Shown piece by piece: positions 43,160-64,000 of a stretch of DNA of 64,000 nucleotides. Below the pieces are notes generated by a model, which saw only the letters and a list, made by a program, of their open reading frames with translations, was not told the DNA's origin and ran no database searches. Position numbers and translations under genes: made by a program. The stretch is from Escherichia coli (GTDB lineage: Bacteria; Pseudomonadota; Gammaproteobacteria; Enterobacterales; Enterobacteriaceae): NCBI RefSeq assembly GCF_003334305.1, contig NZ_QOWS01000017.1; one strand, 5' to 3'. Numbering within the stretch: the stretch's first letter is position 1; each line of letters starts with the position of its first letter.

Positions 43160-43173
43160 TAAGGGGATTTTAA

Positions 43174-45012
43174 ATGTTAGAAATTAACACTTCTAAAATT
43201 AAGAACACAGTAACATTTAGTGTAGATAAAGACAGCTTGAAAAAAGCGAAAGACTCTATTACAGGCTTAAAGGAATTCACAGAAAACATCAAGCCAGCTA
43301 AATTAAGGTTTGATAGTGTCACTAAAGGCTATAAGAAAGCACAAAGCGAAGTAGACAAGATTGCTCAACAGAAAGCTAAAACAGAAAAGCAGAATCAAAG
43401 AGCACAAGCTGCCGCAGCAAGAGCACAGGCAAGGCAACAGACACAAATAGCAGCACGTAAAGAGAAAGCAGAATTAAAGCTCCTCGATGTGTCAAGCTCT
43501 ATCAGTGCAATGCACCGCCTCTCTGTAGCGGAACAATACAAAGCTATTGCACAGGCTAGAGAGATAGCAAAACAATATGAGCAAGGGGCTATCTCGCTTG
43601 CACGTATGAATAGTCAGATGAAACGCCTACAACAGCAACAACGTAAGATTAATGGCAACAGAAAAGCTCAATTAGCCCCCGTTAAGGGAGGAGGATCAGG
43701 GAATTCCGCCACGATGGGTGCTCTGTTATTTGGAGGCGCTACAGCGGCTGCTGGCGTGATGGCTGTTAGTAAAGCGTCGGAGTTTGTTAGTAACAGTTTC
43801 GCTAACGCAGAGACACAAGGTGAGCTAATTCAACGTGCAAGGCTTGGCGGTGTAGACGTTAACCAGATGTACAACATTACAGAATGGGCCTATAGAAACG
43901 GCGTTGACTCTATGATGGGTGATCAAGGGGCTAGGAAATACCTGGATCAGATGAAAGATGTTAGGGAACGTGCCGCAAAATCCTATAGTGAAGCTGAATA
44001 TGTAGTCGATAAAAAAACTGGTAAAGGCGGCGAATGGAAAGGCGGTGATAACGCTATTAATGAACTTCTAAACATCGGTGTTATTAACAAGAGCGACCTT
44101 AAAAAATTTGCTGATAATCCAGCCGGATTAATTTCTAAGGCTGTTAATGGAATGATGAAAAAAGGGTTTTCAGACTCCCAAATTGGACAACGTTTAGAAG
44201 ACCTGGGTGATGATTTGATGCTTACATCAAAATATTGGCAACGTTCCGTTAAAGATGTACAAACAAGCATCGAGCAGCAAAAAGCCTCTGGAAAATGGCT
44301 AACAGAAACACAGCAAGATTCTATTGTTAAATTCAGAGAACTAAACAGACAGCTTTCACAGCTTTCTGATGCAAGACAAGTAGCATTTGTAGACGGCTTT
44401 ATGAAATCTCTCGATCCAAAAGTAACGGAAGAGTTTATGAAAAACCTTTCTAATCTCACTCCGTATTTTACAAAGCTGGGAGAAGCTACAGGAAGTCTCT
44501 TTGAAGCTATTATGAAGATTGTAAACTGGTTTAATCGTAATGATGATAAGACAGATGCTATTCAGAAAAATTTAGGTGATGCACCGCCATTAAGCAATGA
44601 AGGAATGAAACAGAATCTTTCTAATCTCGTTCCTGATCAATATAAAGGCGCTGGCACCGGAACAACTAAGCCAGATAACAGCAATTCCCTGTTTAACACT
44701 ATTAAGGGATTGCTTTTCGATGATAAGTCTTCTTCTGTGTCAGATGTAAAAATGTCAGTCAGCGAAGCACCGATAACCAATCTCAAACAGGGCGCTTTAA
44801 ATAATCTTGCAATGACAACTCCGGCTTATAATTTATCTCCTGTGTTTAATCTGAATCCTACATTTGAAGTGGTAACAGAGGTTCCTCTTACTATTAATTC
44901 TGACACATCAAGATTAAGCGATTATGTGGATTTTACAGCGAGATCAAGTCGGGATAGCTTCTTGAAATCATTAACATTAACCAGCTTATCAGGACAATCT
45001 AACGGCGGGTAA
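43174..45012 (+). CDS. large coiled-coil protein with a Gly/Ala-rich hydrophobic segment (tape-measure-, pilot- or ejection-like)
   Basis: 612 aa; K/Q/A-rich predicted coiled coil in the N-terminal 170 aa; GGGSGNSATMGALLFGGATAAAGVMAV segment. Confidence 0.55.
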   Translation: MLEINTSKIKNTVTFSVDKDSLKKAKDSITGLKEFTENIKPAKLRFDSVTKGYKKAQSEVDKIAQQKAKTEKQNQRAQAAAARAQARQQTQIAARKEKAELKLLDVSSSISAMHRLSVAEQYKAIAQAREIAKQYEQGAISLARMNSQMKRLQQQQRKINGNRKAQLAPVKGGGSGNSATMGALLFGGATAAAGVMAVSKASEFVSNSFANAETQGELIQRARLGGVDVNQMYNITEWAYRNGVDSMMGDQGARKYLDQMKDVRERAAKSYSEAEYVVDKKTGKGGEWKGGDNAINELLNIGVINKSDLKKFADNPAGLISKAVNGMMKKGFSDSQIGQRLEDLGDDLMLTSKYWQRSVKDVQTSIEQQKASGKWLTETQQDSIVKFRELNRQLSQLSDARQVAFVDGFMKSLDPKVTEEFMKNLSNLTPYFTKLGEATGSLFEAIMKIVNWFNRNDDKTDAIQKNLGDAPPLSNEGMKQNLSNLVPDQYKGAGTGTTKPDNSNSLFNTIKGLLFDDKSSSVSDVKMSVSEAPITNLKQGALNNLAMTTPAYNLSPVFNLNPTFEVVTEVPLTINSDTSRLSDYVDFTARSSRDSFLKSLTLTSLSGQSNGG

Positions 45013-60770: not shown

Positions 60771-61382
<612 letters not shown>

Positions 61383-62399
61383 TTACAGGTGCATTCAGTT
61401 TCCTTAGTAAACCGGAAGTAAATAAGATACGTAGTACATATCAATAAAGGTTAAACGAGATTAAGTTTAATTATTTTCGATTGGGCTTAAATTTATGTTT
61501 TTTTCCCGATGAGTGTCAATATGTGAACGGAAAAGGAATTCAATGGTTAAGTCAATATTTAGAAAAACTGAAAATATTGCTTTTTTGATAAGAAGAAAAA
61601 GACATTTGGTTTCATAAGGTTATTGGCAATATAACGTTCAATTCTTACTTGCATTTTATATTGGTCAGGAACTTTGCCCTGAAGTGTTAGGAATAGTCTT
61701 AATGCGCTGTGTGATGGACTAGTAAAAAAAACAAGTTTTAAGGGTAAGGGATAGAATATAAAACTATAATGAGCTGTCATTGAAGATGATTTGCCAATCA
61801 GTAAGAAATTTTAATGGATTAACATGCCGCACAAAATGGTTATAGGTGTTCATTACAATAAGTGATGGAAAATTGAACGGGCGTATGTACGTCATCTGTT
61901 CGGTAAGACCCCCAAGAGCCAGATTAAGTGAAGTTAAACGAAGGCTGCCAGCTGTCACAGGAACGATGGCCTCTTTGTCAGGGCACTGAGTGCAGTTATC
62001 TGTGCGCGTTACTCTAACTGGCACTCGAACGTCGGCGATGGGCTTACCGGTGGATCAAACTGTTCCTGTGGCGTAAACGTTTTTATGTTAGTACCAACAG
62101 ATTTACCACATTTATCATCTTAACAGTTTGAGTGAAAACGCAGGCTGCGCCGCAAAGGGAGGAGACTGAGTGGCGTGTTCAGTCTAAAAGAGGGTTGATG
62201 CCAGCATACAGGGGCGAAGCTGGTCAACAAGTCAACATTAAGATAATGGAATATTCGGAGAGAAACGTCAGGCAGTTGGCCTCAAATGAACAGGAAGAAT
62301 ATATCCCCAGGAAAATTAATGTTGGTGTTATAAACACACCAACATTAATCCGATCTGATTATTAATCAGACAAATATCGTTAATTCGTCGAATTTTGAA

Positions 62400-62540
62400 T
62401 CAACGTTTTTTCTTACGACCCTGAACGGCCTTAAAACGTGGATTAGATTTACAAATCACATACAACCGTCCTTTTCGCTTCACAATCTGACAGTCTTGAT
62501 GGCGTTCTTTTGCGGTACGCAGAGAGTTAAGAACTTTCAT
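62400..62540 (-). CDS. ykgO: 50S ribosomal protein L36 paralogue (zinc-independent type)
   Basis: 46-aa ORF below the ORF-track cutoff; translation [46 protein letters not shown]. Confidence 0.8.
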
Positions 62541-62803
62541 TACGCCCCCTTTTTCGTGCTAACAAAACGACCAAAACGTTGGGTGAACCGTGCAACATTT
62601 CCTTCTGATGCCACTGTTCTCAGCTTCCCTGTATAGAACGGGTGCGATTTCGAAGAGACATCAATTGTTACGTACGGATACGTTACGCCATCCAGCTCAA
62701 TCTCACGGTCTGTTTTGATAGTCGAGCCGATTTTAAAGTACTCATCAACACTGGTGTCGTGGAACACCACAGTACGATACTCAGGATGGATATTGGGCTT
62801 CAT
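62540..62803 (-). CDS. ykgM: 50S ribosomal protein L31 paralogue (type B)
   Basis: 87 aa from [10 protein letters not shown]…. Confidence 0.9.
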
Positions 62804-62813
62804 CATTTTTACC

Positions 62814-62830
62814 TGTTATGTTATAACATA
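62814..62830. promoter_or_regulatory. Zur-box-like palindrome upstream of ykgM
   Basis: tgttatgttataacata is an AT-rich palindrome of the Zur operator type, just 5' of the ykgM start. Confidence 0.5.
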
Positions 62831-64000
62831 ACCATAAAGATACATGCTCATCCGGATCATTTCAACACCCAATCCCTGTGACTCTTTGTGGATGTGGAAT
62901 TTTCGCAACGGGGAACTCTGGCATTGTTAGCAGCCATTGGTGACGCTCCCATAAACGCCTGGATGAGTGATTGATGATGGTTTTGCTGAGAGTATGGATT
63001 TTTCGACAATGGAGGTTATCTCCACTTTACTGGCCGATGATTTATCGCAGTATGATTGATTACCTGACAGCGTGTATTCCTCTCCCACGGATATAATAAT
63101 TACTTACAAAAAGGGAGAGGATGCATATTTTAAATATCACTGAAGTGAACAGTTTATTGCCGTTATTAATAGAAATGGAGAAATAAATAGGCGTATTCTA
63201 CAATTGCGACAAAAACAACGATATTAATCAGTTTATGACTGATTTGTTGTACTTTATTCTCTTTCATTGGTACTTCCTCGCTTTAAAAAAGAGCGCACTT
63301 CGTAAGTGCCCTTATATAAATAACGAGTTTGGTCAACCAATTTTTTGACATGTATCACAAATTTGAATAGATGTATTACATCGGCTATCTTTTATTGCAC
63401 CAACGTCATTGATATATGTCGCCTGAAGTCAGTTCCGGGAATGAGTCTGATCTCAAGACTGGCCCAGTCCGGGCGTTGATTGGCGCTGAGGAGCATATCG
63501 CATCTCATCATAATGTCGTATCTCCTGGGGTGTTATACAAGATATCGTTGTTGGTGACCTGGGAGAGGAATTGAGTTCTATTAAACCGTCAACTATGCCG
63601 GATACATACTGGATTACACTGCAGGCACGCCTTACGAGAGAACGTGCCGCAGTGACGGGTTAATTATCTGAAAGAATTTGTGAGGCTGTATCGGTTACTC
63701 ATTGATTTGATAGTTTTACTCTCGGGAGAGTAATAGATATTTAATCTATTAACGGAAACCAGCCAGTTCCTTTCGATGCCTGAATTTGATTCCATAGTTT
63801 ATCCGGAATGGTTAATTCATGAATAAGTTGTGTTCTCGTTCATGAGAAGCATAACGTAAAGGGAAAAGCTCGATTAGACGGCAGGATTTGTCAGGGGTTA
63901 TGAACGAAATTCATAAATCTGTTTGAGTGTTGCGATGGGTAGTGCAAGTTCGAAATCTCCGCAATTTACAGTCCGATGAAGGAAAATGAATATCCATAAA

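Follow-up and report, generated by a model that had tools for sequence, protein, structure and literature searches.

The ykgM-ykgO operon of Escherichia coli (ykgMO) belongs to the zinc-sparing response, which exchanges ribosomal proteins during zinc starvation, for example under host nutritional immunity. At its K-12 operator, the L31p operator, the zinc-responsive repressor Zur protects about 30 bp, and the apparent dissociation constant (Kd-app) of 0.025e-18 M^2 is the lowest, i.e. tightest, of four Zur operators; repression, measured as wild type against a zur deletion, is 560-fold (Gilston et al. 2014, PMC4219657). The same work gives a structure-based definition of the Zur box, with a purine/pyrimidine (R/Y) skeleton, a 20-mer pattern and a central TATA (Gilston et al. 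2014, PMC4219657). A later study also has ykgMO repressed by Zur, with its products L31p and L36p standing in for L31 and L36 in the ribosome (Rasmussen et al. 2022, PMC9825181, summary). Translation of rpmE is in turn repressed by L31p (Rasmussen et al. 2022, PMC9825181). Outside E. coli, a close described case is ykgM-rpmJ2 of Yersinia pestis, a C- L31/L36 operon that is repressed by Zur; its Zur box lies within the Zur footprints, which reach into the -10 region (Li et al. 2009, PMC2706843).

The locus described here lies near one end of the 64-kb stretch of E. coli DNA that was analysed (the window). It is the well-known, already characterised ykgM-ykgO operon, one of the best-characterised Zur targets, and its biology is ordinary. 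A preliminary description of the same DNA had labelled it expected core biology, and rightly so. The value of the locus lies in its correct annotation alone, which shows this part of the window to be ordinary E. coli chromosome.

The two genes and their products

The features of the locus are collected in Table 1. RefSeq calls the same two genes, ykgO and ykgM, at the same coordinates. In an NCBIfam profile search, YkgM scored 122.8 bits against NF002462 (‘type B L31’, curated cut-off 86) and 69.3 bits against the generic L31 model TIGR00105 (cut-off 38.35), while YkgO scored 89.7 bits against NF002021 (‘type B L36’, curated cut-off 70). The identities proposed in the preliminary description, L31 type B for ykgM and L36 type 2 for ykgO, are therefore borne out by scores above the NCBIfam cut-offs and by the agreement of RefSeq. 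The mechanical open reading frame for ykgM is one codon longer (88 aa, 62540-62806) and opens at an ATG one codon earlier than the RefSeq start. We place the start at 62803, because the NCBIfam L31 profile begins to align at residue 2 of the 88-aa frame and because the divergent E. coli lineage GF43 has ATA ATG where the window has ATG ATG.

Table 1. Coordinates of the ykgM-ykgO operon and its control elements in the window.
Feature	Position	Strand	Basis and remarks
Candidate ykgMO terminator	62312-62349	-	Inverted repeat and RNA fold; inside the 3' end of convergent ykgL
ykgO, type B (C-) ribosomal protein L36 (bL36B)	62400-62540	-	46 aa; open reading frame list, NCBIfam, RefSeq
TAATG stop/start overlap of ykgM and ykgO	62538-62542	-	Read from the sequence
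ykgM, type B (C-) ribosomal protein L31 (bL31B)	62540-62803	-	87 aa; NCBIfam, RefSeq
Shine-Dalgarno-like AGGT for ykgM (putative)	62811-62814	-	Read from the sequence; abuts the palindrome
Zur operator core, perfect 18-bp palindrome GTTATGTTATAACATAAC	62815-62832	.	Direct scan, Zur pattern, K-12 identity
Predicted -10 hexamer TATCTT	62837-62842	-	Consensus scan; invariant in 6/7 aligned E. coli sequences
Predicted -35 hexamer TTGAAA	62860-62865	-	Consensus scan; invariant in 7/7 aligned E. coli sequences

The genes share exactly one base, 62540, in the string GCG TAATG AAA, where the TAA of ykgM occupies 62542-62540 and the ATG of ykgO 62540-62538. The one-base overlap noted earlier is thus correct. 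A Shine-Dalgarno-like AGGGGG stands ahead of it at 62545-62550 (minus strand). The arrangement is typical of translational coupling, and translation of ykgO is probably coupled to that of ykgM through the TAATG.

YkgM and YkgO have folds homologous to those of the primary E. coli paralogues RpmE (bL31A) and RpmJ (bL36A) and, judging by a solved ribosome (below) and the literature, would take the same ribosomal positions. For comparing zinc ligands we used RpmE and RpmJ reference sequences that were checked as exact matches to chains of solved E. coli ribosomes. In the alignment with RpmE, YkgM has T, V, S and S in place of the ligands C16, C18, C37 and C40, and it lacks cysteine altogether. 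The picture is less complete for YkgO, which has H14, C17, C30 and F36 at the positions equivalent to the RpmJ ligands C11, C14, C27 and H33. Two of the four positions are therefore altered (C11 to H14 and H33 to F36), C17 and C30 are kept, and since H14 could still act as a ligand, YkgO retains potential ligands (H14, C17 and C30) at three of four positions. The label ‘C-’ is clear-cut for L31B and only partial for L36B, whose sequence leaves it with potential metal ligands. YkgO further differs from RpmJ in a three-residue insertion and a basic C-terminal tail.

Both proteins are present in a solved E. coli ribosome, PDB 6i7v. YkgM is identical to its chain D7 (‘50S ribosomal protein L31 type B’) over sixty-eight resolved residues, and YkgO matches chain C5 at 44/45 residues. 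Codon 15 of ykgO (62496-62498), which lies between H14 and C17, encodes Q15 in this lineage and P15 in K-12 and in 6i7v.

In the RefSeq annotation, ykgL, ykgO and ykgM are flanked by ecpR and ykgR, the same layout as in K-12 MG1655. The start of ecpR/matA (60771-61361, minus strand) differs between annotations: RefSeq gives it 543 nt (60772-61314) in an identical strain against 591 nt in K-12, and the 591-nt K-12 version corresponds to a 196-aa frame with a GTG start in the list for the window. Upstream of the ykgM promoter are ykgR, a small membrane protein gene (63166-63267, minus strand), and a ykgP-like partial pseudogene (63741-63830, minus strand), both as in K-12; fdeC/eaeH lies beyond the end of the window.

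The ykgMO genes also appear in sixteen ‘plasmid’ records of PLSDB. The twelve of these sixteen that were listed include plasmid-labelled records of 1.2-4.9 Mb, K-12-type plasmids of about 213-242 kb and three records of 10-69 kb. The K-12-type plasmids look like F-primes carrying a chromosomal segment. We considered a mobile ykgMO module and dropped the idea, as none was apparent among the twelve listed records, which are megabase-sized or F-prime-like apart from the three small ones (10-69 kb).

Predicted promoter, operator and candidate terminator

The predicted -35 and -10 hexamers are separated by a spacer of 17 nt and form the only sigma-70-like site on the minus strand in 62100-63300, in a consensus scan that found two sites where shuffled sequence gave 2.9, which is no excess. 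The palindrome GTTATGTTATAACATAAC begins 4 nt downstream of the predicted -10 and extends as far as the AGGT. At the usual distance from this -10, transcription would start inside the palindrome, and a footprint of about 30 bp centred on it would span the edge of the -10, the +1 and the leader.

The preliminary description had placed an operator-like palindrome ahead of ykgM. One is present, but the 17-mer offered for it, tgttatgttataacata, which is found once in the window (62814-62830), has no symmetry of its own; it covers the 18-bp GTTATGTTATAACATAAC incompletely and off centre, and GTTATGTTATAACATAAC reaches 2 bp past the end of the region then described. With arms of 9 nt, GTTATGTTATAACATAAC was missed by an inverted-repeat search at a minimum length of 12 and recovered by a direct palindrome scan, which gave no longer perfect palindrome anywhere in the 64-kb window. 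Taken by itself, the length of GTTATGTTATAACATAAC is weak evidence: palindromes of at least 18 bp arose 0.35 times per 64 kb in first-order Markov simulations, and 29 per cent of the simulated windows held one. Its position, 8 nt before the ATG codons, together with its sequence, is not chance.

Three descriptions of the Zur box were compared with the site. It fits the R/Y skeleton at 18/18 positions, with the central TATA present, and it agrees with the published 20-bp pattern at 19/20 positions over 62814-62833, where the next-best site in the window has three mismatches. In dinucleotide shuffles, 0.17 sites are expected at up to two mismatches from the 20-mer, and a site at up to one mismatch occurred in 0/150 simulations. 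The comparison with the known Zur box that the preliminary description had proposed thus came out in its favour, with 19/20 for the 20-mer, 18/18 for the skeleton and a unique best site in the window. Part of this match is circular, as the 20-mer pattern was itself partly derived from the K-12 copy of the ykgM operator; independent support is therefore needed, and comes from the cross-species test below and from the published Zur binding.

The other two descriptions did not single the site out. The skeletal motif RNNNYRNNRYNNYRNNNY is non-discriminating, with 238 hits in the window against 258 expected. The 23-bp gamma-proteobacterial consensus GAAATGTTATANTATAACATTTC (Panina 2003) matches the ykgM operator at 17/23 positions, second in the window, and this poor fit arises because the operator is even-centred and the consensus odd-centred. 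The ykgM operator is accordingly a clean positive control for operator-finding, one that the 20-mer picks out and the skeleton and the 23-mer do not. We also considered TAAATGTTAGAAATTAACACTTC (43171-43193), which has five mismatches to the 23-mer, as a second Zur site; it fails the 20-mer and is probably a chance match. It overlaps the ATG of a 612-aa tape-measure-like frame (43174-45012, plus strand) that follows a frame of 343 aa, and from the open reading frames alone its surroundings look like a prophage stretch.

At the other end of the operon, the candidate terminator pairs its arms, 62336-62349 and 62315-62328, into a perfect stem of 14 bp with a loop of 7 nt, followed by four U. The RNA fold of the 108 nt at 62295-62402 has z = -4.0, and 0/200 shuffles fold as well. 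The consensus terminator scan did not flag the stem at 62312-62349. It is a plausible terminator for ykgMO. In the gap between the convergent ykgL and ykgO there is also an odd-centred perfect palindrome of 17 bp, TCTGATTATTAATCAGA (62354-62370), which spans the ykgL stop codon and forms part of the first hairpin after ykgO in the minus-strand RNA fold.

Variation in E. coli and sites in other species

A 701-bp query covering ykgL-ykgO-ykgM matched 5063 of 5426 complete E. coli genomes. The remaining 363/5426 had no match to it, and about 7 per cent of E. coli genomes may lack the ykgMO operon. A 30-mer holding the palindrome, the Shine-Dalgarno-like element and the upstream ATG is near-exact in 4713/5052 E. 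coli records with the locus (about 93 per cent), while the flanks vary. With megablast, the 60-mer from the -35 to the Shine-Dalgarno-like element is identical in 3011/5052 records and the adjoining control 60-mers in 1937 and 2165, bands that are only roughly comparable given the 28-nt word requirement.

About 40 per cent of the E. coli records are one base off the window in the promoter/operator 60-mer. Among the genomes sampled for these differences, T>C at 62834 was found in three human clinical isolates and GF43, A>G at 62835 in O157:H7, and C>T at 62815, a change from pyrimidine to pyrimidine at the outermost base of the palindrome, in one genome, Combat13F7. All three sampled variants lie at or outside the edge of the palindrome. 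The polymorphisms at 62834 and 62835, which split E. coli roughly 60/40, are located between the -10 and the palindrome and inside the region of about 30 bp under Zur protection. Between lineages they might shift the zinc threshold for derepression of ykgMO or its amplitude, and P15Q might alter any residual metal binding by L36B, though we consider these effects unlikely. If they did occur, there would be a lineage contrast between the sampled O157:H7 and bloodstream or urinary isolates on the one side and K-12-like strains on the other.

We next asked how Zur-type sites are distributed over L31 genes with and without the zinc-binding cysteines (C+ and C-). One degenerate DNA pattern for MKP[ND]IHPEY was scanned against one genome per species, which gave at least 120 loci from many phyla, 113 of them usable. 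The matches listed held no enteric relatives and served as a contrast of C+ with C-. A Zur-type site with up to three mismatches was present within 150 nt upstream of 6/41 C- L31 genes and 0/72 C+ genes among the matches listed (Fisher p = 0.0018), and the best Zur score in internal control stretches of these matches was four mismatches. The six positives among the matches listed are four Vibrio species, Enterovibrio nigricans and one Pseudomonas metagenome-assembled genome, in which the site lies 76 nt before the L31 ATG.

All the Vibrionaceae loci among the matches listed were positive (5/5: Vibrio hepatarius, V. fortis, Vibrio sp. S9_S30, V. mexicanus and E. nigricans), each with a site of zero to two mismatches 16-36 nt before the ATG. 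These are ykgM-ykgO-like loci, in four of which an L36 paralogue follows the Cys-less L31 at a distance of -1 to +11 nt; the V. mexicanus locus breaks off 35 nt past the L31 gene. Vibrio sp. S9_S30 has a one-base overlap of L31 and L36, as in E. coli, and E. nigricans has the same 18-mer upstream of its ykgM-ykgO, inside a perfect palindrome of 24 bp.

In four Vibrio loci (L014, L022, L094 and L098) the Zur box is directly abutted, on its upstream side, by a Fur-box-like element that lies 38-71 nt before the L31B start. These loci give the four best matches to the Fur 19-mer, with three to five mismatches, among 118 listed L31 upstream regions; the other listed L31 loci have at least six mismatches and E. 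coli ykgM has nine. The Vibrio ykgM-ykgO loci may thus be under dual Fur/Zur control or have a second site for a Fur-family regulator, as far as can be judged from DNA whose AT-richness is a confounder.

Zur repression and comparison with described operons

We put the probability that the ykgM-ykgO operon of the window is under direct Zur repression at about 0.96, and found nothing that contradicts this reading. Other explanations of the palindrome were weighed against it. It might be an AT-rich inverted repeat that arose by chance and has no regulatory role, with the operon controlled from elsewhere. The frequency of perfect palindromes of 18 bp or more in simulated 64-kb windows (29 per cent) leaves room for this, and so does the uninformative skeletal R/Y motif, with fewer hits (238) than expected (258). 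A chance repeat does not, however, account for where the palindrome stands, less than 10 nt from the start codon and abutting the only predicted promoter, or for a 19/20 match to the Zur 20-mer that no simulated window reaches. It is likewise at odds with the conservation of the palindrome while its flanks vary, with the same core in Enterovibrio and similar sites in Vibrio, and with the identical K-12 sequence, which binds Zur and is repressed 560-fold (PMC4219657). Position, sequence match, conservation and published binding together effectively refute a chance origin, to which we give almost no credence.

We think it equally improbable that the site is bound by another regulator of the Fur family, namely Fur in response to iron, in place of Zur. 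Both kinds of box are inverted repeats rich in A and T, and Fur-box-like sequences do adjoin the Zur boxes of the orthologous Vibrio loci, but within 62800-62870 the Fur 19-mer is mismatched at no fewer than 9/19 positions, a score equalled or bettered at 1968 positions of the window. Moreover, the central TATA has been described as a Zur-specific feature that the Fur box lacks (Gilston et al. 2014, PMC4219657), and both direct Zur binding and the effect of deleting zur have been published (PMC4219657). With 9/19 mismatches, we rejected a Fur box as the identity of the ykgM operator. A role mainly in RNA is very unlikely as well. Transcription from a start near 62830-62833 would let the 5' leader form a 7-bp hairpin directly before the Shine-Dalgarno-like element, where it could act on translation or mRNA stability beside the ribosome-binding site. 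Such a hairpin follows trivially from any palindrome in the DNA, though, and the fold of the leader is unexceptional (z = -1.25, with 25/200 shuffles folding as well). L31 is reported to bind the leader of the l31 mRNA and not that of l31p (Rasmussen et al. 2022, PMC9825181), while Zur binding at the level of DNA accounts for the regulation (PMC4219657). At z = -1.25, we rejected the hairpin as unsupported.

Direct repression by Zur would work as follows, with Zur binding, repression and incorporation into the ribosome taken from the literature. When zinc is sufficient, zinc-loaded Zur would bind 62815-62832, as two overlapping dimers do in K-12. The protected region of about 30 bp would take in the end of the -10, the site where transcription starts and the short leader, and RNA polymerase would thereby be kept from initiating; we infer both this occlusion and the exact start from the geometry of the promoter. 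When zinc is scarce, Zur would lose its zinc and leave the DNA, allowing one mRNA with a short leader to be made. Both ykgM and ykgO would be translated from this mRNA, probably coupled through the TAATG, and transcription would presumably end at the candidate terminator, two further steps read from the layout of the locus. L31B, which has no zinc site, and L36B, whose site is degraded, would then replace the zinc-binding L31 and L36 in the ribosome. To this scheme the present analysis brings the identities of the genes, the sequence and statistics of the operator, the identity of the control region with that of K-12, the loss of ligands and the comparative association.

The preliminary description had judged the locus consistent with Zur control, and this judgement stands on the 19/20 match to the 20-mer, a promoter and operator identical to those of K-12, and the published Zur repression in that strain. 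The K-12 operon (b0296-b4506, with the ‘PL31p’ operator) has the same genes in the same order with the same one-base overlap, and the same neighbours ecpR, ykgL and ykgR. Base for base, the two sequences agree over the whole stretch that runs from the -35 to the start codon and includes the palindrome; the nearest upstream difference is a single base at 62869, 4 nt upstream of the -35. The YkgM proteins are identical, and their genes differ by five synonymous codons, including the stop (TAA in the window, TGA in K-12), so that the overlap reads TGATG in K-12, with one shared base as in the TAATG of the window. In ykgO there is one synonymous difference and one non-synonymous, P15Q, the window having Q15. 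With the ykgM-rpmJ2 operon of Y. pestis, where the transcription start was mapped by primer extension and that of the window is predicted, the likeness is drawn from the published description.
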